Shown one piece after another: positions 47 to 21,729 of a stretch of 32,000 bases of DNA. A program made the position numbers and the translations under genes. Location: the NCBI GenBank assembly GCA_041661045.1, contig JBAZVE010000001.1, forward strand, positions 330,001 to 362,000. The letters are read 5' to 3'. Numbering within the stretch: position 1 is the first letter of the stretch; every line of letters starts with the position of its first letter. The notes beneath the pieces were generated by a model. The model searched no databases. It was given only the letters and a program-made list of their open reading frames with translations, and was not told the DNA's origin. Source of the DNA: Candidatus Saccharimonadota bacterium (GTDB lineage Bacteria; Patescibacteriota; Gracilibacteria; UBA1369; 2-02-FULL-48-14).

Positions 47-820
47 ATGTCGCTAACTCAAAGGCTTAAACAAGGCTTTCTACGATTACCTTCCGCTAAG
101 AAGCTCATTTTGGTGTCCAGTTTCACCCTGGCGGTGAGCACGGTGATGCCTTGGTATGACCAAAGAAACAATTTTGGAGTCGGGGATACTTTCCTCGGGA
201 TTCAAGGACCTTTGTTTGCGGTTGGATTTCTTGTGCTGGGTTGCGCCTTGGTTAGTTTTTCGAATCTCTTTTTACCTTTAATGGGACGCCATTTCTTTGA
301 TTTGAAGCGACAAAGCGGATCTTTGGCCCTCTCCCTGGGAGGACTTTCTCTGCTTTTGATTTTAGTGGCCAATTCTGTGTTTTATCACCCTGAATTTGCA
401 GTGACCATCAACAATAAGGGCACTCGATTTGGAATGGTGGCGGCGTTCATCTCCATTGGAGCTCTGATGATTTCGGGCTGGTGGGTTCGTCGCAAAGAAA
501 AAGCCGGCGGCGGTATGGAGGACCGAGAGAATGAACTGGAAGATTTTATGGCAACTCCTGTGGCACCTGCGCCCATGCCAAGCTATTCGGTGCCCACTCC
601 CAGCTATGTTGTGCCTGTGCAAGATCGCATCCCTCAGCCTCAAGTTCAGCCTGCGCCTCAAGCTCAGGTGCCTGTGGATCCTTTGACTTTGGATGCCCGT
701 ACTCGCTACAAAATGATGAAATCTCAAGGTCACTACAGCTCTTCGGCCCGCAATAATTTGTGGGGCAGCGGCAGTGGCAGCGCGTTTGGACGACAAGCTC
801 GCATTGAAGAAGATCTCTAA
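47..820 (+). CDS. Hypothetical integral membrane protein with Pro/Gln-rich C-terminal half
   Basis: ORF track 14..820 begins at a TTG; the first ATG is at 47 (MSLTQRLKQG). Several hydrophobic helices occupy the first ~150 aa, followed by low complexity PVAPAPMPSYSVPTPSYVVP...PQPQVQPAPQAQVP. No family recognised. Confidence 0.55.
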   Translation: MSLTQRLKQGFLRLPSAKKLILVSSFTLAVSTVMPWYDQRNNFGVGDTFLGIQGPLFAVGFLVLGCALVSFSNLFLPLMGRHFFDLKRQSGSLALSLGGLSLLLILVANSVFYHPEFAVTINNKGTRFGMVAAFISIGALMISGWWVRRKEKAGGGMEDRENELEDFMATPVAPAPMPSYSVPTPSYVVPVQDRIPQPQVQPAPQAQVPVDPLTLDARTRYKMMKSQGHYSSSARNNLWGSGSGSAFGRQARIEEDL

Positions 821-2831: not shown

Positions 2832-2953
2832 GGGGGTGATGAGGCTGTTGAGGGGACCTTGTGCTGGGTGGAAATGTTGTGGAATTCACTCTTAAGAGTA
2901 TGGTTTGCGAGTTTTGGAGGTTTTGTAAAGAGGGGGTGCGGTGATAAAAACTG

Positions 2954-2996
2954 TCAGGAAAATTTCAGGAAAATGTCAGAAAAAGAGTGCTAGGAT
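2954..2996 (+). promoter_or_regulatory. Three 11-bp-phased TCAGG boxes plus a -10-like TAGGAT upstream of dprA
   Basis: TCAGG at 2954-2958 and 2965-2969, TCAGA at 2976-2980, each followed by an A-rich spacer. TAGGAT at 2991-2996 lies 6 nt before the ATG at 3003. No -35 hexamer is visible. Confidence 0.5.
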
Positions 2997-3002
2997 GGGG
3001 GT

Positions 3003-3881
3003 ATGGAGATTGGAAAATTAGTGCTGGGGGAGCCGGGGTATCCGGGGCTGCTGAAGGAGATCTATGACCCTCCGCGGGTTCTTTATTACAGCGGGGATTT
3101 GGCGATTTTGGAGCGGCCGTGTGTGGCGATTGTGGGAACGCGGCGGATGAGCAGTTATGGAGAGGCGCAGGCTTTTCGGTTTGCGCGAGAACTGAGTGAG
3201 AGGGGTATTTGCGTGGTGAGCGGGCTGGCGTATGGAATCGATAAGGCGGCGCACGAGGGGGCGTTGATGGGTGGCGGGGGGCGAACAGGGACGACCGGGC
3301 TACGCCCGGGAGGCACGATTGCGGTGGTGGCGCAGGGGCTCACGGAACTGCAGCCGGCGGCGCATCGAGATTTGGCACGGCGAATTGTGGCGGCGGGCGG
3401 CTTACTGCTGAGCGAGAAGGCCGCCGGCGAAGAGAGTTTTAAAAGCGATTATTTGGTGAGGAATCGGATTATTGCGGGACTCTGCAAGGCCACGCTGGTG
3501 GTGGAAGCTCCGTTTAAATCCGGGGCCAGGAATACGGCGAAACATGCCTACGAAAATGGCCGCGATGTTCTGTGCATACCCGGACGCATCGGGGATGAAA
3601 ACAGCCAGGGAACCAATGCCCTGATTCAGGAAGGGGCGCGGCTGGTGGTGAGCCCGCAAGAAGTGGCGGAGGCTTTGGACCTCAAATGGCAAAACTTGGA
3701 GGTGAAACTGGAGGGCCTGGCGGGTGAGGTTTTTCGCGAGCTTAAAAAAATGCCGAAGTCGCCGGCGGAGTTGGGGGAACGGTTCCATAATATGACCGAG
3801 CTGTACGGAGTGCTGGGTGAGTTGGAATTGCGCGGGCTGGTGCGTTTTACAAAAGACCTGCGCTACGCGGCAGTGCTTTGA
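3003..3881 (+). CDS. dprA: DNA processing protein DprA (Smf)
   Basis: Rossmann-like core VAIVGTRRMSSYGE...VSGLAYGIDKAAHEGAL...IPG..GD..SQGTNALIQEGA, followed by a C-terminal winged-helix-like tail. Confidence 0.85.
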   Translation: MEIGKLVLGEPGYPGLLKEIYDPPRVLYYSGDLAILERPCVAIVGTRRMSSYGEAQAFRFARELSERGICVVSGLAYGIDKAAHEGALMGGGGRTGTTGLRPGGTIAVVAQGLTELQPAAHRDLARRIVAAGGLLLSEKAAGEESFKSDYLVRNRIIAGLCKATLVVEAPFKSGARNTAKHAYENGRDVLCIPGRIGDENSQGTNALIQEGARLVVSPQEVAEALDLKWQNLEVKLEGLAGEVFRELKKMPKSPAELGERFHNMTELYGVLGELELRGLVRFTKDLRYAAVL

Positions 3882-5573: not shown

Positions 5574-5626
5574 CAGACGCATTGATTTAATCTGTTTATT
5601 ATAGCAGAAAATGCGTCTGTTTTGAA
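5574..5626 (-). promoter_or_regulatory. Putative pilB promoter (TTCAAA-17-TATAAT) bracketed by a 10-bp inverted repeat
   Basis: On the minus strand the -35 is the complement of 5621-5626 and the -10 TATAAT is the complement of 5598-5603. Inverted repeat CAGACGCATT (5574-5583) and AATGCGTCTG (5610-5619). Confidence 0.5.
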
Positions 5627-7062: not shown

Positions 7063-7530
7063 TTACTGTTTTGCTCCGGTTTTCGCAAGTTCAAAAACGA
7101 TTTCTGCAGAGAAGCCGCGGGAGGCCAGGAATTGCGCTCGCTTTTGGTAGAGCTTTTCGAGTGGGACTTTGGTGAAGCGCTTTTGAGCCTGAGTAAGGGC
7201 TTGAGAGGCCAGGTCTCGCTCCGAGAGTTCCATGGCATTCCATGCTTCTTGAGTCGCTTTTACCGGGATGCCTTTTTGCTGCAGACGGGCGGCCAGTTTG
7301 AAGGGGCCTTGAGGTTTGGTGCGCGTTGAGGCTTCTATGGTGTTGCGGATGAAATTTTGGTCGTTGATGAGGCCGAGTTCCTCAAGTCTAGCCAAGACTT
7401 TTTCTGCGAGTTCCGGAGTTGCGATGGGCTTTTTTAAAATTTTTTCCCTGAGCTCACTGCCGGTGTGAGCCCTCCGAGCGAGAGCTCGGAGGGCGTATTC
7501 CATGAGTTTTCGGTAAATGGGGTCTTCCAT
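7063..7530 (-). CDS. recX: Recombination regulator RecX
   Basis: Starts 2 nt downstream of the recA stop. RecX-like helical repeats (YALRALARRAHTGSELREKI, VLARLEELGLINDQNF, LQQKGI). Confidence 0.75.
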   Translation of the reverse strand: MEDPIYRKLMEYALRALARRAHTGSELREKILKKPIATPELAEKVLARLEELGLINDQNFIRNTIEASTRTKPQGPFKLAARLQQKGIPVKATQEAWNAMELSERDLASQALTQAQKRFTKVPLEKLYQKRAQFLASRGFSAEIVFELAKTGAKQ

Positions 7531-7532
7531 AT

Positions 7533-8564
7533 TTAAGCGAGAGAAGCCACTTTTTCTTTGATCATCCCTTCGAGTTCAGTGATGATCTGAGGGTTTTCCT
7601 TGAGGAAGTCTTTGGAGTTTTCACGACCTTGCCCAAGGCGAGTCTCGCCGTAGCTGTAGAAAGCGCCGGCTTTGCGTACAAATTCATATTTTGTGGCAAG
7701 ATCCAAGATGTCTCCCTCTTTCGAAATTCCTCGATTGTATAGAATGTCGAATTCTGCGGTTTTGAAAGGTGGCGCCACCTTGTTTTTCACCACTTTTACA
7801 CGAACTCGGTTGCCCACTTGTTCTTTGCCATCCCCACCACCTGCTTCCAATCCTTCGATGGATCCGATGCGACGGATATCGAGCCGTACGGAAGCGTAGA
7901 ATTTGAGTGCCTGACCTCCGGTTGTGGTCTCTGGATTTCCAAACATTACTCCGATTTTCATACGAAGCTGGTTGAGGAAAATCACGATACAATTGGACTT
8001 GCTGATGGATCCTGTGAGTTTTCGTAGAGCTTGGCTCATGAGACGGGCTTGGAGCCCCATTTGAGCGTCTCCCATTTCCCCTTCAATTTCCGCCCGAGGA
8101 ACGAGGGCGGCAACGGAATCGATCACAATGATATCTACCGCGTTGGATCGCACCAAAGTTTCGGTGATTTCCAGGGCTTGTTCCCCCATGTCGGGTTGAG
8201 AAAGCAGGAGGTTGTCCACATCCACTCCGATTTTGCGAGCGTAAGCGGGATCCAAGGCATGCTCCGCATCGACGAAGGCTGCCGTTCCTCCTTGCTTTTG
8301 AATCTCGGCAATCACATGGAGTGCGAGCGTTGTCTTACCGGAACTTTCCGGTCCGTAAATCTCAATCACTCGACCTTTGGGGATTCCTCCACCAAGAGCG
8401 AGATCGAGAGAGATGGATCCGGTGGAAACCGTTTCCACATCCATATGCCTGGATTCTCCAAGTTTCATGATGGAACCCGTCCCGAAACTTTTTTCAATTT
8501 GGGAGAGGGCGAGTTCGAGGGCCTTTTTGCGGTTGTCTATTCCCGCGTCTTCTTTTGCTACCAT
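7533..8564 (-). CDS. recA: Recombinase RecA
   Basis: Canonical RecA sequence throughout: [61 protein letters not shown]. Confidence 0.97.
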
Positions 8565-8599
8565 AGCGTGTTGGGTTAGTGATTAGGAAGCTTGTTTCG

Positions 8600-8628
8600 A
8601 GTATAGGTGAGCGCGCGCTCACCGTCAA
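8600..8628 (-). promoter_or_regulatory. recA promoter TTGACG-17-TATACT with an 18-bp perfect palindrome filling the spacer
   Basis: Minus strand reads CGCTTGACGGTGAGCGCGCGCTCACCTATACTCG. The palindrome GGTGAGCGCGCGCTCACC is at 8606-8623. Confidence 0.6.
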
Positions 8629-8685
8629 GCGATTTTATCATTCCGGCCGAATGACCCTTATGCTAGCCAAAAAAACGGGCAAAGT

Positions 8686-8712
8686 CCTGACAAAAACCTG
8701 AAAATTTCCTGA
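8686..8712 (-). promoter_or_regulatory. Three 11-bp-phased TCAGG boxes upstream of recA
   Basis: Minus strand reads CGGAATTCAGG AAATTTTCAGG TTTTTGTCAGG. CCTGA occurs on the plus strand at 8686, 8697 and 8708. The boxes lie 57 nt upstream of the recA -35. Confidence 0.5.
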
Positions 8713-12499: not shown

Positions 12500-13099
12500 A
12501 TGAATACACCCTCATCCTTTCGACCTTCAAATCGACCTTCACGCCGGGCAGGACAAAAACCGGTTTGTGAAATGTCTTCAGAGGAACTTGGGACTGTGCT
12601 TTTGTCTTATAAGAACGGGCTTCTCGCCTACTTGTGTAACCATGGGCTTGAAGTTGACCCCTTTCTTGCAGAAGATATTTTCTACACCGTGGTTGAACGG
12701 ACCCTTCGCTATCATCGTGATGGGCCGCGCCCCATCGAGAACCTTGGCACATTCATGTATAGAATAGCGATCAATCTGGCCATGAATAAAGGCTCAGCGG
12801 CTGCAAAAGAATCTGATGTCCTTGAGACTTATGCTCTTAGGTGCCTTCCTGATGGAGATCCTATAAATCCTGAACTTGCCCTTGAACGAAAGCGAGAGGC
12901 TGATGCAGTGCGACGCGCCATGGGGGCCTTACCCTCTGCTCAGAGGGCAGCCGTTCAAGAGCTTCAACTCCATGGGAAAACCGGCCTGGAAGCCGCTCAG
13001 GCGCTTGGCGTAAAGCACTCCAGCCTTCGTGTTCAGCTGAACAGGGCGCTGCATGCACTTCGTCAAAATGAAGACCTTCGCGCTTCAAGAGCTGCTTAA
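12500..13099 (+). CDS. ECF-type RNA polymerase sigma factor (sigma-70 family)
   Basis: Region 2 (FMYRIAINLAMNK) and region 4 HTH (LPSAQRAAVQELQLHGKTGLEAAQALGVKHSSLRVQLNRALHALRQ). An internal start at MSSEELG is possible. No anti-sigma gene is adjacent. Confidence 0.75.
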   Translation: MNTPSSFRPSNRPSRRAGQKPVCEMSSEELGTVLLSYKNGLLAYLCNHGLEVDPFLAEDIFYTVVERTLRYHRDGPRPIENLGTFMYRIAINLAMNKGSAAAKESDVLETYALRCLPDGDPINPELALERKREADAVRRAMGALPSAQRAAVQELQLHGKTGLEAAQALGVKHSSLRVQLNRALHALRQNEDLRASRAA

Positions 13100-13764: not shown

Positions 13765-14688
13765 ATGACCGATGTGACAACTCTCCAACGCCTGATAACT
13801 CGTTTCCTCGAGCATCTTGAAGTGGGCAAGAATAGATCGTCCAAAACCATCGAGAATTATCATCATTATTTGCAACGCTTTGCGGAGTTTTATGGGGATC
13901 GGGCGATGGCGAATTTGAGCACTTCCGATGTCCATGCCTATCAACTTTTTTTGAATCGTTTTATGGACGCGCGGGAGCATGGTCTGGGGGTGAAGACTCA
14001 AAATTATCACCTGATTGCCCTGCGGGCGTTTTTGAAATATTTGGTGCGGATGGATGAACCGTCTTTGGCGCCGGAGAAAGTCGATCTTAAAAAAATTCCC
14101 GAACGCAGTGTGGATTTTTTATCACGCGAGGAAGTGGAACGGTTGTTTGAAGTGGTGGATTTAGGAAAACGGGGAGGGCTAAGGGACCGGGCGGCGCTGG
14201 AAACTTTGTATTCCACGGGACTGCGCGTTTCGGAATTGGTGGGTTTGAATCGGAGCCAAGTGGATTTGGAGCGGCGGGAATTCACCGTTCGCGGGAAGGG
14301 GAAAAAGCCGCGCATTGTTTTTTTGTCGGAGCGCTGCGTGAAATGGCTTAAGCTTTATTTGGCGGATCGGGCGGATAACTGGGAGCCGGTGTTCATCAGC
14401 TTTGGGCGAAATCGCGAGGGAGAGGAATTGGGGCTTGGCGAAAAGCGGCGGCTCACGGCGTATTCCATTGAGGAAATGGTACGGCGAGCGGGCCGTTTGG
14501 CAGGCATTGGAAAGCGCGTGACGCCCCATTTGCTGAGGCACAGTTTTGCGACGGAGCTGCTGCACAACGGCGCGGACATTCGCAGCGTGCAAGAAATGCT
14601 GGGACATGCTTCCATCACGACCACGCAGATTTACACGCACTCCACGAATGAGCGCTTGCGGGAGGTGCATGAAAAGTTTCATAAGTGA
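13765..14688 (+). CDS. xerC: Tyrosine site-specific recombinase (XerC/XerD family)
   Basis: Catalytic residues lie in TGLRVSEL, GKGKKPR, HLLRHSFAT and GHASITTTQIYTH. Start set at ATG 13765, 6 nt after a TATACT box. The track start at 13747 is the alternative. Confidence 0.85.
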   Translation: MTDVTTLQRLITRFLEHLEVGKNRSSKTIENYHHYLQRFAEFYGDRAMANLSTSDVHAYQLFLNRFMDAREHGLGVKTQNYHLIALRAFLKYLVRMDEPSLAPEKVDLKKIPERSVDFLSREEVERLFEVVDLGKRGGLRDRAALETLYSTGLRVSELVGLNRSQVDLERREFTVRGKGKKPRIVFLSERCVKWLKLYLADRADNWEPVFISFGRNREGEELGLGEKRRLTAYSIEEMVRRAGRLAGIGKRVTPHLLRHSFATELLHNGADIRSVQEMLGHASITTTQIYTHSTNERLREVHEKFHK

Positions 14689-15750: not shown

Positions 15751-16870
15751 GCCCTACAATGAGAATGCGTACAGTCCGGATGAGCTTATTGGGGAGACAC
15801 GGGTGTCAAAAAAATTGTCGGCTGAAATGCAACTGTTTCATTCCATTGGGTGCATTGCGGTGTTTACCGGCGCGGCATGGGTGACGGATATCTCTAATCC
15901 TGAGATCGTTCAAAATGTGGGCTTTTTTGCCGAAGGTGCAAGTCTGGCTTTTGGCATTGGGGGGTATATTAAAGGTTATGGTGACTACATTTACGATGCC
16001 TTCCATTCCACCCGCGTTGGTCCTTCTATCCCTGAGCTTGAAGTGAGATCGCCTTGGACGGGACATGGGCGGTATTCGCTTCCTCTACATAATCCTATTG
16101 TGAGGGGGCCTTTGGGAGATCGGCTTTCTCGTGAAGTGCACTATAAACCCATAGAGGCTCATCTCCAAAGAGAATCATTAACGACCTGGACCAACCCGCG
16201 GAAGGCTTTGCCCACGGAGCCCGATCGGCTTCCTGAGTTGACTTCAAAACTCGACCGATTCCTTGCGGATTTTGAAGAGGCGCTTCATGCTTCCACCAAT
16301 CGTGGCTTAATAGAACACGGGAAGGCTTTGAGAGATGGGGCGGAAGTTTTGAGGGAACTTGGCAAGACGCTTGATGCGGACCCCGACTCGCAGTTGGAAC
16401 AAAAGGCAGCGGTAATGGAAAAATTTGAACTCAAAAGACATCTTCAACAACTGGTTGGGCTTTGCAGGAGGCGGGCGCTTGCCCTTCAACTCATCGAGCG
16501 CTTGAAAACAAAGGGGGAGGTGGCTGTGGACTCCCGTGCTGCCTTTGATGAGGCGAATGTGAAATTGGCGAATTTTCATGGCATTAAACAGAAGACCGGC
16601 TTGCCTGCTGGAGAGGAGAGCTTGCGGGATAGTCTGACTCAGGCAAAAAAGGCCTATTCCGACCTTGTGAGCGGGATCGTTATTCTTATTGAAGAAAGCC
16701 GCAGAGAGCTGGAAGAAGTTTTGAATGCGGAGGGTGAGGGGCGCTTGCTCAGTGAGGAGGAGTTGGATGGAGCGGTTGGGATTGGAGAAACGGCTAAGCG
16801 AATGGGCATGGCGGCGCGAAGGGTGGGGGCGCGGACGGTGGGGACGCGGACGGTGGGGACGCAGAAATAG
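15623..16870 (+). CDS. Hypothetical protein with two hydrophobic segments and a long helical C-terminal region; 5' end uncertain
   Basis: ORF-track frame. The first ~38 codons (R/L/W/C-rich) overlap the 15574 ORF and look non-coding. Real entry may be a +1 shift at 15733-15739, or GTG 15803 (GGGGAG lies 7-12 nt upstream), or ATG 15827. Hydrophobic segments are LFHSIGCIAVFTGAAWV and VGFFAEGASLAFGIGGYI. No family recognised. Confidence 0.55.
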   Translation: METSQRGLTRMLHWLCVRLGFTELSLRGVLRGLPDWSLGRANKPYNENAYSPDELIGETRVSKKLSAEMQLFHSIGCIAVFTGAAWVTDISNPEIVQNVGFFAEGASLAFGIGGYIKGYGDYIYDAFHSTRVGPSIPELEVRSPWTGHGRYSLPLHNPIVRGPLGDRLSREVHYKPIEAHLQRESLTTWTNPRKALPTEPDRLPELTSKLDRFLADFEEALHASTNRGLIEHGKALRDGAEVLRELGKTLDADPDSQLEQKAAVMEKFELKRHLQQLVGLCRRRALALQLIERLKTKGEVAVDSRAAFDEANVKLANFHGIKQKTGLPAGEESLRDSLTQAKKAYSDLVSGIVILIEESRRELEEVLNAEGEGRLLSEEELDGAVGIGETAKRMGMAARRVGARTVGTRTVGTQK

Positions 16871-16906: not shown

Positions 16907-16924
16907 GGTGTGTACGCACTCACC
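16907..16924. promoter_or_regulatory. Imperfect 18-bp palindrome related to the recA palindrome, upstream of the HNH-dgt operon
   Basis: GGTGTGTACGCACTCACC: 7 of 9 arm pairs are complementary, and 14 of 18 positions are identical to the recA site. It lies 4 nt after a TTGAAC-18-TATTCA candidate promoter and 8 nt before a TATTAT box. Confidence 0.4.
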
Positions 16925-16982
16925 TTTTGTGTTATTATCAGGTTAAGCACTGCCAAGTGGGGACCCTTTAACCCCCTCTTTT

Positions 16983-18077
16983 ATGGACTTACAAAATGGT
17001 GAGATTGCGGCGGACTCTGCGCGGATGGCGCGAGCCATCGTGGAGGCCGCCGCGCCGGCGGATCTTTCGGATAAAGATTTATATGCGCGGTGCCAGGAAT
17101 ATGGTCTGAACGCGCGGGTGTGGCGGCGGCGCTTTGCCGGTTTATTGCCCGAGGTGATGCAGCGGGAGCTGCATCGGCGGCGGGGCCACGCGTCCATCTA
17201 CGAGTTTGCGTTTAAACTGGCGGGCATGAGCGGCTCCAGTGTGGACAAGGTTTTGCATTTGGCGGAAAAACTTGAAGATAAACCGGCGCTCCGTGAGCAG
17301 CTCATGAGCGGCTCGCAAGGGTGGTCCAAACTTGAAAAAGTGGCTTACATTGCAACGGCTGAAACGGACAAAGCGTGGGCGGAAAAGGTGGAGGGGATGG
17401 GCACTTACGCGCTGGAAGCTTTCGTTCAGTTGAAGCGGCGGGAGGGGGCCTTTACAGAAAGTGAAACTGTTGACGGGCAAACTCATATGAGTGAGCAGGA
17501 ACATAACTTTCGTACAGAGCAATGGGGTAGTATGAGTTTTCCGGTTTCTCCCGAGGTTGAGAAAAAACTCAGACTCCTCAAGTACCAACTGGAGCGGGAG
17601 AAGGGGGTAACCTTGACCTTCAATGAAGTGTTTCGGGCTCTTTTAGCGCAAGAGGCTGGGGGCGGAGGACAGGCTCAAATGGTTATTCAAGTGTGTCCGG
17701 AGTGTGCGGCGCGAAAAGCGTCCGAGGCTCAGGGCCGCGCGATCCCGGCGGCGGTGAGGAGGGTGCTGCACGCCAAATACAAAGGCTACTGCGGGTTTTC
17801 CGGTTGCGCGCGGCCGGCCACTTCCCTGCACCACACGCGGCGGTTCTCCCTAAACCAGGGGCATGACCCCCAATTCATCGTTCCTCTCTGCAAAGCGCAT
17901 GAGCGCCTGGCGCATTCTGGACTCATCGAAAACGAAGAAGAGCCGCCGGAAAAGTGGCGAGTGCTCGAGGCGGCGGACCGGAGGCATCCCAAATTCTCCA
18001 TCGATCAAAAAGTGCAATCCTTCCGCACAGAAGCTATACTTGGCGCACATCGGGCGCCGCTCACCCCCTCTCCATGA
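16983..18077 (+). CDS. HNH endonuclease with DUF222-like N-terminal domain
   Basis: C-terminal HNH/zinc motif CPEC...CGFSGC...SLHHTRRFS...IVPLCKAHERLAH. The N-terminal region (ASIYEFAFKLAGMSGSSVDKVLHLAEKLEDKPALREQL) resembles DUF222-type HNH proteins. Confidence 0.8.
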   Translation: MDLQNGEIAADSARMARAIVEAAAPADLSDKDLYARCQEYGLNARVWRRRFAGLLPEVMQRELHRRRGHASIYEFAFKLAGMSGSSVDKVLHLAEKLEDKPALREQLMSGSQGWSKLEKVAYIATAETDKAWAEKVEGMGTYALEAFVQLKRREGAFTESETVDGQTHMSEQEHNFRTEQWGSMSFPVSPEVEKKLRLLKYQLEREKGVTLTFNEVFRALLAQEAGGGGQAQMVIQVCPECAARKASEAQGRAIPAAVRRVLHAKYKGYCGFSGCARPATSLHHTRRFSLNQGHDPQFIVPLCKAHERLAHSGLIENEEEPPEKWRVLEAADRRHPKFSIDQKVQSFRTEAILGAHRAPLTPSP

Positions 18078-20880: not shown

Positions 20881-21729
20881 CTATTTTTCTTGAGCAAGGT
20901 GCGGTTTTATGGCGGCGGTGGCTCTCATTTTTCGGTATGCCTTGGCTTCAATTTGTCGGATACTTTCACGCGTTAAATCCATCTCCTTTCCAATGTCTTC
21001 CAGGCTCGACCCCTCGGGATCTCCTTCCAGACCAACCCGACGCCTTAGAACATACCGCTCCCTTTCCTCCAACTCTGCAGCGTCCATGAAGTCTCGAATA
21101 AAACCACGCAATTCTCTGCGCCTTGTTTCAAGCTCCGGATCAGAGGCTTGGTCGGTTCTTAGACGGCCGATTATGGATAAACCCTCTTCGTCAGCGCCCG
21201 GGGCCGGTTCCAATGGTAAAGTTCCTTTATTGAGTTGGAGTACATTCAATAAGGTTTTTGGAGTCACTTTGAATTCTTTGGCCAGCTCTTCGAGGGTTGG
21301 CTGGCGCTTGTGAGTTATTAAGAAAAATTTTCTGTATTCCCGGACACGATTGATCAGTGCTGCTCTGTAGACTGGTAAACGAATGGTACGGCTTGTGTTC
21401 TCTATAGCCCGCACAATGCTTTGACGAATCCACCAAGTCGCATAGGTGGAAAACTTGATCCCACGACTATAATCGAATTTTTCTACCGCCTTCATTAAGC
21501 CCAAAATCCCCTCTTGGACCAGATCGTCAAATGGGAGTCCACGGTATTTGTACTGATTGGCGACACTGAGCACCAGACGGGAATTTGCCTTGATCATTTC
21601 GAGCCTGGCGAGTTCACTATTCGCCCCCCCTTCTTGGATCATCCTACCCAATTCCGTCTCATCTTCACGATGAAGGAGTGGGACAGCTCTCAACGCTTCA
21701 CGGTAAGTGTCGGGTTTTTGGAGGGCCAT
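20881..21729 (-). CDS. RNA polymerase sigma factor, sigma-70 family (RpoD/SigA-like, short form)
   Basis: Region 2 ([41 protein letters not shown]), region 3 (RTIRLP) and region 4.2 ([27 protein letters not shown]). Confidence 0.88.

Follow-up and report, generated by a model that had tools for sequence, protein, structure and literature searches.

How are the genes for DNA uptake and recombination switched on in the Candidate Phyla Radiation (CPR, or Patescibacteria)? Much of the diversity of bacteria belongs to this group, hardly any of whose members are in culture, and very little has been learned of how they regulate their genes. Their host-dependent way of life probably relies heavily on taking up DNA. 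The question is raised by a stretch of 32,000 nucleotides from a Candidatus Saccharimonadota bacterium (Patescibacteriota, Gracilibacteria; assembly GCA_041661045.1, contig JBAZVE010000001.1, positions 330,001 to 362,000), referred to here as the window, in which TCAGG boxes repeated every 11 bp precede both dprA and recA. A preliminary description of this DNA had proposed that the boxes replace the -35 element of an apparently leaderless dprA promoter and that they form a shared cis-element of a DNA-uptake and recombination regulon. The comparisons reported here suggest that the arrays are quite probably promoter elements that depend on a bound factor and that unite the genes of a DNA-processing regulon. 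This circuit is probably conserved in related uncultured Peribacteria and Peregrinibacteria and has probably not been described before.

Phased TCAGG boxes upstream of dprA and recA

On the forward strand, the dprA-side array (2954..2980) consists of TCAGG at 2954-2958, TCAGG at 2965-2969 and TCAGA at 2976-2980; the boxes recur every 11 bp exactly, and the stretches between them (AAAATT and AAAATG) are rich in A. Ten nucleotides past the last box lies a -10-like hexamer, TAGGAT (2991..2996), preceded by TGc, as in an extended -10, and followed by 6 nt (GGGGGT) and the ATG at 3003; the promoter as read in the window is ctgTCAGGaaaattTCAGGaaaatgTCAGAaaaagagtgcTAGGATgggggtATG. Because of an in-frame TAG at 2991-2993, this ATG is the first possible start of the dprA coding sequence (3003..3881, forward strand), whose 292-aa product matches PF02481 (2e-67) and TIGR00732 (above cut-off). 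A sigma-70 consensus scan of the site reports no -35/-10 pair, and the hexamers at a spacing of 16-18 nt (GAAAAT, GGAAAA and AGGAAA) match TTGACA at two of six positions at most. The second array (8686..8712, reverse strand) has the same orientation as recA and contains three TCAGG boxes, at 8708-8712, 8697-8701 and 8686-8690, with the 11-bp period seen at dprA (from 8712 to 8686, attTCAGGaaatttTCAGGtttttgTCAGG). The preliminary description was accurate on all of these points: the exact box positions and their period, the distances of TAGGAT from the last box and from the ATG, the missing -35-like hexamer at dprA and the recurrence of the same triplet upstream of recA.

When up to two mismatches are allowed, the triple pattern matches only these two arrays in the 32 kb, against 0.13 matches expected. 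The two-box pattern is likewise confined to the same two places, with four overlapping matches versus 0.30 expected, a count reached in none of 100 shuffles. Lone TCAGG pentamers are not enriched in the window (47 observed versus 66 expected), so that it is the phased arrangement which is unusual.

Relatives whose DprA is 49-72% identical, and in which the dprA-recA neighbourhood is retained, keep the arrays in front of both genes. At dprA, loci L002, L247 and L020/L168 have conserved boxes, and those of L005, L245 and L246 are degenerate. The L002 promoter (66% DprA identity) reads ttgTCAGGaaaactTCAGGtatttgTCAGAaaaaagtcgcTAGAGTggggctATG. That of L247 (64%) has TCAGG-TCAGG-TCATA followed by 10 nt, TAGAGT, 6 nt and the ATG, and L020/L168, from a Peregrinibacteria metagenome-assembled genome (MAG), has three exact boxes, 10 nt, TAGAGT and a 24-nt leader. 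In L005, TCAGG and TAAGG are found 10 nt before TAGCGT and a leader; in L245 (54%) and L246 (49%), the boxes have degenerated to TAAGG/TCAGG/CAAGG and the hexamer, the 6 nt and the ATG are kept. At recA, two or three exact boxes are kept in L002, L005, L168, L205, L245 and L246; in these relatives the boxes are followed by ACTT and, 20 nt on, by TACAAT or TATATG.

Elsewhere the motif is scarce. In L002 and L005, which were obtained by DprA identity alone, two-box matches occur only upstream of dprA or recA, and 74 kb of syntenic sequence contains no arrays in coding or other intergenic DNA. In 62 kb of lineage DNA chosen via an unrelated protein, one array only was found, and one array per about 60 kb of such motif-blind DNA suggests some 20 arrays per genome. 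Both checks proposed in the preliminary description, on conservation at the orthologues and on background frequency, thus came out in favour of a genuine element.

A scan of a genome collection with the pattern TCAGG-WWWWNN-TCAGG-WWWWNN-TCAG gave at least 118 loci. Among the 118 matches listed, at least 12 lie in five Peribacteria, Peregrinibacteria and Gracilibacteria MAGs, which is far above the chance share of a clade of ~1-Mb genomes, and single genomes (~1 Mb) have at least five, at least three and at least two arrays among the matches listed. In a stricter scan of metagenomes, most of the matches listed are perfect 11-bp minisatellites in unrelated DNA, and the remainder includes sites whose downstream genes are homologous to the MAG targets. 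Both scans required three strict boxes, and their counts are lower bounds. A Hamming-distance filter against minisatellites lost genuine sites and the metagenome site list was curated by hand; the offset statistics given below are confined to genome matches with a taxonomic label.

It is this abundance of perfect tandem repeats in unrelated organisms that would speak for chance, or for a recent and functionless 11-bp duplication, as the origin of the arrays. However, a minisatellite has near-identical units that are not conserved, whereas here the spacers differ from unit to unit, orthologous sites are conserved over deep divergence, the register to the -10 is fixed and the arrays are co-oriented with genes. 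Because of the conservation data, this explanation is effectively refuted.

In addition, several triple-box matches per genome were found in MAGs of Panacagrimonas (L063, L083, L090 and L120), with two similar four-box arrays in L120. Matches in this gammaproteobacterial genus may represent another repeat family or regulon.

Promoter registers and predicted transcript starts

In 30 non-redundant sites (90 units), the 11-bp unit has the consensus WWWW-T-(T/G)-TCAGG, or WWWW-T-K-TCAGG, and the period is exactly 11 bp in the 90 units. The arrays comprise two to five direct repeats, all on one helix face, and are all intergenic and co-oriented with the downstream gene. The first four spacer positions are A or T in 79-81 of the 90 units (88-90%), where the scan patterns themselves demanded A/T. 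Downstream of the boxes, a TAnnnT hexamer is found in two registers. In class A (8 of the 30 non-redundant sites, including window dprA) it lies exactly 10 nt past the last box, and in class B (13 of the 30, including window recA) it lies 20-21 nt past it. The hexamer is at offset 9 in L181 and L188, and 7 of the 30 sites have no clean hexamer at offsets 9, 10 or 20-21. The dprA and HigB sites of L247 are class A by eye, which brings the 10-nt class to ten sites. TAnnnT at 10, 20 or 21 nt is present in 13 of the 16 taxonomically named sites versus 13 of 82 non-lineage controls (Fisher p=6.8e-7), and the named sites have no TAnnnT at other offsets from 0 to 19.

Part of the offset-20 signal of the control set is supplied by sites upstream of a type IV pilin gene in Massilia (L024 and L035) and Duganella (L052), members of the Oxalobacteraceae that are unrelated to the lineage. 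In these, three phased TGTCAGG boxes precede a gene whose product contains a ComP_DUS domain, the receptor domain for DNA uptake sequences; the boxes may be PilR-type sites.

One helical turn separates the two registers. With the hexamer placed at -12 to -7, both classes have boxes whose centres fall near -36 and -47, and the extra box lies near -25 in class A and near -58 in class B. No conserved -35 hexamer was found across the box sites, and the hexamers are generic TAnnnT, with G, A or T at position 3 and variable positions 4-5. Other promoters of the window are of the ordinary type with a -35, namely recA P1 (TTGACG-17-TATACT), pilB (TTCAAA-17-TATAAT) and a gene for a sigma factor like those of the extracytoplasmic function (ECF) group (TTGATT...TAGAAT). 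Because these ordinary promoters in the same DNA carry a -35 plus TAnnnT, the box promoters probably use the same type of holoenzyme, with the array standing in for the -35 contact. In the proposed mechanism, a sequence-specific protein would bind the repeats head-to-tail and recruit RNA polymerase in place of that contact, in a PhoB-like manner.

Some features of the sites weigh against such activation. The role of the presumed activator is read from sequence alone, from the absent -35 and the positions of the boxes, and the metagenome site set was picked partly by eye. At the expected offset a clean hexamer is missing from L064, L094 and L134, and TATATG stands at the recA sites of L005, L168, L245 and L246. 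Moreover, the hexamer is directly preceded by TGn in 4 of the 8 class A sites, including window dprA (gTGcTAGGAT), and such extended -10 promoters could function without an activator.

The last observation would allow a reading in which the boxes are repressor operators on extended -10 promoters (TGn-TAnnnT), with a protein polymerising from about -25 to -58 and blocking RNA polymerase until it is inactivated. The class A proximal box (about -27 to -23) does overlap the RNA polymerase footprint, and many of the targets described below encode toxins, integrases and nucleases, whose genes are as a rule kept silent. However, TGn and a -35 are both missing from one half of class A and from almost all of class B, and these sites would be very weak promoters unaided. 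In class B the array stops near -33, on the upstream side of the core promoter and in a position typical of activators, and the exact register of 10 or 20-21 nt between direct repeats and hexamer is a hallmark of activation dependent on the face of the helix. In addition, recA already has a separate promoter with its own operator. Repression is accordingly considered unlikely.

The window also encodes two sigma factors: a divergent ECF-like one (12500-13099, forward strand), whose region 4 alone passes the Pfam threshold, and an RpoD/RpoS-like one of just 282 aa with regions 2-4 (20881-21729, reverse strand). The presence of an ECF-like factor beside an RpoD-like one, and the use of an alternative sigma in streptococcal competence, could suggest that no dedicated factor exists and that RNA polymerase itself reads the array, either through an alternative sigma or through the C-terminal domain of its alpha subunit on a curved UP element of phased A/T tracts. 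The spacers are indeed phased A- or T-tracts, to the extent that the scan patterns imposed A/T. Yet it is TCAGG that is invariant, whereas the spacers switch freely between A-runs and T-runs, the opposite of what curvature or an UP element would predict. A sigma factor reads one -35 at about 17 nt, not two to five repeats at 10 or 20-21 nt; the hexamers are the ordinary TAnnnT of housekeeping promoters; and the promoter of the ECF-like gene itself is a normal TTGATT/TAGAAT without boxes. This reading is very improbable, and an activator bound to the boxes is still preferred.

Under activation, transcription would start about 6-7 nt past the hexamer, and the dprA mRNA would hence be leaderless, as the preliminary description had supposed. 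Supporting this prediction, T1, A2 and T6 of the hexamer and its 10-nt distance from the boxes are kept between orthologues, and an ATG lies 4-7 nt past the hexamer in seven of the ten sites of the 10-nt class (window dprA, L002 and L247 dprA, L079, L219, L018 yraN and L247 HigB). The tRNA-like RNA described below starts 6-7 nt past its hexamer. In L020, L077 and L208 the leaders are 24, 20 and 21 nt long and the hexamer is still 10 nt from the boxes; since it tracks the boxes and not the ATG, it is best taken as a promoter element and not a ribosome-binding site. The comparison is thus best read as predicting that the dprA mRNA has no leader.

TAGGAT was also considered as a Shine-Dalgarno sequence, with AGGA 7 nt before the ATG. 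This was rejected: the orthologues have TAGAGT, TAGCGT, TAGGCT, TATTTT and TTTAGT, which keep T1/A2/T6 and not purine richness, and the L020 hexamer stays with the boxes. No GGAGG Shine-Dalgarno was found at the gene starts of the window.

Other starts in the window and its relatives have unusual surroundings. In several genes the ATG follows a -10 hexamer by 6-8 nt, as in that of the ECF-like sigma at 12500 (6 nt). In addition, a TAACC(C) motif starts 12-18 nt before the ATG at 20 of 205 long-ORF starts, against 0.9% expected, with examples at 8573-8578 (recA) and 16969-16974; the starts were taken from the window, L002, L005, L245-L247, L064, L155 and L181. This suggests that the lineage uses non-Shine-Dalgarno and leaderless initiation.

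The arrangement at recA (7533-8564, reverse strand; PF00154, 1e-139) is more complex. The array lies upstream of recA and of recX (7063-7530, reverse strand; with recA, 7063..8564), and a proximal, canonical promoter, TTGACG-17-TATACT (P1; 8600..8628, reverse strand), sits 57 nt downstream of the boxes, which were for this reason rejected as the -35 of the main recA promoter. The proposal that boxes substitute for a -35 thus stands at dprA and falls for the main promoter of recA. The recA array and the -10-like hexamer TAGCAT, 20 nt past its last box (P2, putatively box-dependent; 8660..8665, reverse strand), are instead predicted to form a separate distal promoter upstream of the canonical one. 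Driven by the array, this distal promoter would read through the separately controlled P1.

The spacer of P1 is filled by a perfect palindrome, GGTGAGCGCGCGCTCACC (8606-8623). Every relative retains this palindrome, which looks like the putative operator of a separate, possibly SOS-like, repressor circuit. Copies or near-copies of GGTGAG-N6-CTCACC are found in the window at 8606-8623 and 16907-16924, in L002 at 16262-16279, in L005 at 17076-17093, in L168 at 7173-7190, in L205 at 1375-1392 and in L245 at 5585-5602 and 14287-14304. A near-copy, GGTGTGTACGCACTCACC, is located upstream of an unknown 364-aa gene (16983-18077).

Target genes and candidate regulator

Box promoters precede dprA in five to seven lineages and recA-recX in seven. 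They are also found upstream of yraN followed by a gene for a YifB/ComM AAA ATPase (L018; TIGR00368, 498 bits against a cut-off of 362), and of a gene for a secreted protein of the metallo-beta-lactamase (MBL) fold that matches the ComEC/Rec2 C-terminal domain (L219; 5.7e-33). Other targets encode secreted lamin-tail-domain (LTD) proteins, with four to five boxes (L064, L155), M23 peptidases (L023, L181), Xer-like integrases (L042, L079), an NYN nuclease (L094), PemK/MazF toxins (L208, L239), Gp49/HigB with a helix-turn-helix antitoxin (L155, L247), HNH-type proteins (L077, L182), three unknown families at several loci and a tRNA-like RNA (L117, L138, L188). The genes dprA, recA and comM and a ComEC-related function are hallmarks of transformation. 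The recurring gene set is dominated by DNA processing and recombination.

Two aspects of this set speak against a competence regulon. Many of the targets are accessory or mobile (toxins, integrases and HNH proteins), and among the lineage targets in the matches listed there is no pilin or pilus gene, comEA, full-length comEC, ssb or radA; the pilB gene of the window has an ordinary promoter. The enrichment at further competence genes anticipated in the preliminary description was thus seen for yraN-comM and the ComEC-type MBL domain, and not for the pilus, comEA, ssb or radA genes. Similarly, the idea of a shared DNA-uptake and recombination element is borne out by its conservation at dprA and recA and its recurrence at competence genes, but was too narrow, as the regulon would extend to toxins, integrases, nucleases, secreted lytic proteins and the tRNA-like RNA.

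An unknown family of 136-137 aa, with no Pfam or NCBIfam match, is encoded directly downstream of box promoters in two MAGs (L079, 220-631; L121, 2776-3190). In L079, its gene is followed by that of the integrase.

The tRNA-like RNA is 72 nt long and is encoded downstream of a TCAGG-box promoter in L138 (1640-1707, reverse strand), in L188 (~315-386, forward strand) and in L117 (5′ half only, near a contig end). Its cloverleaf has a 7-bp acceptor stem with G3:U70, an encoded CCA and a normal T arm, together with an anticodon stem of 6 bp and a loop of 13 nt; the anticodon stem differs from locus to locus by compensatory changes, and a terminator belonging to the RNA itself is present. ARAGORN makes no call on it and no Rfam family reaches threshold, the best sub-threshold match being the tRNA-like mascRNA. 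About 14-15 nt of the anticodon-loop region are repeated past the terminator, in a manner resembling an att site.

In the window itself, the local genes comprise a purL-like gene, a CAAX protease gene and dprA (forward strand), with genes for a pilB-type ATPase, nusA, recX, recA, purQ and purL (all on the reverse strand). The nearest named relatives of DprA come from MAGs of Candidatus Gracilibacteria and Peregrinibacteria, and box-pattern matches from MAGs of Candidatus Peribacteria; on this basis the window is assigned to a CPR bacterium with a small genome, within the Peribacteria/Peregrinibacteria group. Published genomes of Peribacter measure 1.25 Mb and contain genes for nucleotide synthesis and type IV pili as well as recA (PMC4736985).

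The protein that reads the boxes would most plausibly be a winged-helix response regulator (RR) of the OmpR/PhoB type, a possible but tentative assignment that forms the weakest step of the model. An operon encoding an OmpR/PhoB-family RR and a HAMP histidine kinase (HK) is conserved in the lineage (L208, 5034-6849, reverse strand; L248, L249 and L250) and often adjoins genes for SLH-domain surface proteins, and an OmpR-family RR orthologue, P0159, is probably present in the genome. The lineage RR is 38% identical to PhoB and bears a PhoP label in some annotations. Against this candidate, no boxes were found upstream of the RR-HK operon (L208/L250, L248, L249), and the RR is of the generic OmpR family, with BaeR and MtrA as its closest matches in a PDB sequence search, which also returned RpaA and RegX3.

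The same RR, being conserved in the lineage and related to PhoB, could indicate that the arrays are true Pho boxes bound by PhoB/PhoP and that DNA uptake belongs to a phosphate-starvation regulon, DNA serving as a source of phosphorus and nucleotides. The geometry would fit, as E. coli PhoB binds two 11-bp direct repeats, and the box is often TGTCAGG, which shares TGTCA with a type of site whose cores differ by species. On the other hand, among the matches listed none of the ~17 target families is concerned with phosphate acquisition (no pstS, phoA, phoU or ugp). The RR-HK operon has neither pst genes beside it nor boxes in front of it, whereas regulators of the Pho type tend to control their own expression, and the solved relatives closest to the RR are those named above and not specifically PhoB. 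Control by phosphate is thus quite improbable.

According to the proposed mechanism, activation through the boxes would turn on a competence-like programme of DNA acquisition and recombination. A bolder version, which we consider rather doubtful, is a regulon of the type "lyse neighbour, take up and recombine DNA", in which a two-component-type activator would act on TCAGG arrays at largely leaderless promoters in episymbiotic bacteria; it would be the first regulon defined in CPR/Patescibacteria. If true, dprA, recA-recX, yraN-comM, the ComEC-type nuclease domain, the M23 peptidases and the lamin-tail-domain proteins would be co-induced, along with the toxins, the integrases and the non-canonical tRNA-like RNA, and the secreted set would be lytic and DNA-binding.

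The cis-element provides a sequence-only route to the genes co-regulated with dprA and recA in the lineage, including the unknown families and the tRNA-like RNA, and the array is a concrete probe for finding the regulator among the few transcription factors of 1.3-Mb genomes. Furthermore, leaderless mRNAs and non-Shine-Dalgarno initiation bear on gene calling in these bacteria.

Comparison with known systems

No promoter motif, regulon or TCAGG element of this kind was found described for CPR/Patescibacteria in the literature, and the closest parallels come from other bacteria. In class A (8 non-redundant sites), the array lies 10 nt upstream of the -10 and would replace the -35, a distance that corresponds to the classical pho-box rule. 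In E. coli, PhoB molecules sit head-to-tail on two direct repeats; of the 11 bp in each repeat, 7 (CTGTCAT) are conserved and the other 4 less so (PMC2648988). The cores of Pho boxes differ by species, such as GTTCACC in Streptomyces (PMC4415409). The sites of M. tuberculosis PhoP, the DRu of Streptomyces PhoP and the triple repeats of cyanobacterial SphR resemble the present arrays in their 11-bp repeats, A/T-rich spacer, TCA core and variable unit number (PMC2648988, PMC4415409, PMC4832192). In contrast, the core here is TCAGG, or (T/G)TCAGG, which shares TGTCA or TTCA and is not CTGTCAT; three to five units are typical; a second register lies one helical turn upstream; and the targets are, among the matches listed, DNA-processing genes and not those of phosphate acquisition (pst, phoA, ugp, phoBR).

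The proposed control of recA resembles that of B. subtilis, in which both an operator in the core promoter and an upstream competence-type site are present and dprA and recA are co-regulated. Hamoen et al. reportedly found in 2001 that B. subtilis recA has a LexA-repressed promoter together with upstream ComK boxes. ComK boxes are, however, AAAA-N5-TTTT dyads 8, 18 or 31 bp apart, whereas the boxes here are TCAGG with A/T runs of varying polarity, and the recA array appears to own a -10 and to form a separate distal promoter. The LexA/SOS box itself is a palindromic operator, unlike the direct repeats of TCAGG; GGTGAG-N6-CTCACC is a separate element within the proximal recA promoter.

The ComE (LytTR) box of S. 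pneumoniae has the consensus aCAnTTcaG. As in the present arrays, imperfect direct repeats with TTCAG lie before a -10 that has no -35, and it is competence that they control. However, ComE boxes are 9-bp repeats separated by 12-13 bp (a period of about 21 bp) and occur two per promoter, compared with 11 bp throughout here, and they control comCDE, comAB and comX, not dprA or recA directly. The cin-box of SigX/ComX differs in being a -10 of the TACGAATA type for an alternative sigma, in contrast to the generic TAnnnT of the box promoters. DNA uptake sequences (DUS/USS) are also distinct, since they number hundreds to thousands per genome, many of them in genes or terminators, and not about one intergenic array per 60 kb.

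In gene content, the closest likeness is to the Sxy/CRP-S regulon of H. influenzae, which includes dprA, comM, a rec2/comEC-related function and a HigB/HigA-like pair, the latter being a competence-regulated toxin-antitoxin system (PMC6957337). There, CRP binds together with Sxy to the CRP-S site, which is a palindrome of 22 bp and not an array of direct repeats. Taken together, the activator logic is textbook and implies no new mechanism, and what is new is the element, the lineage and the gene set.

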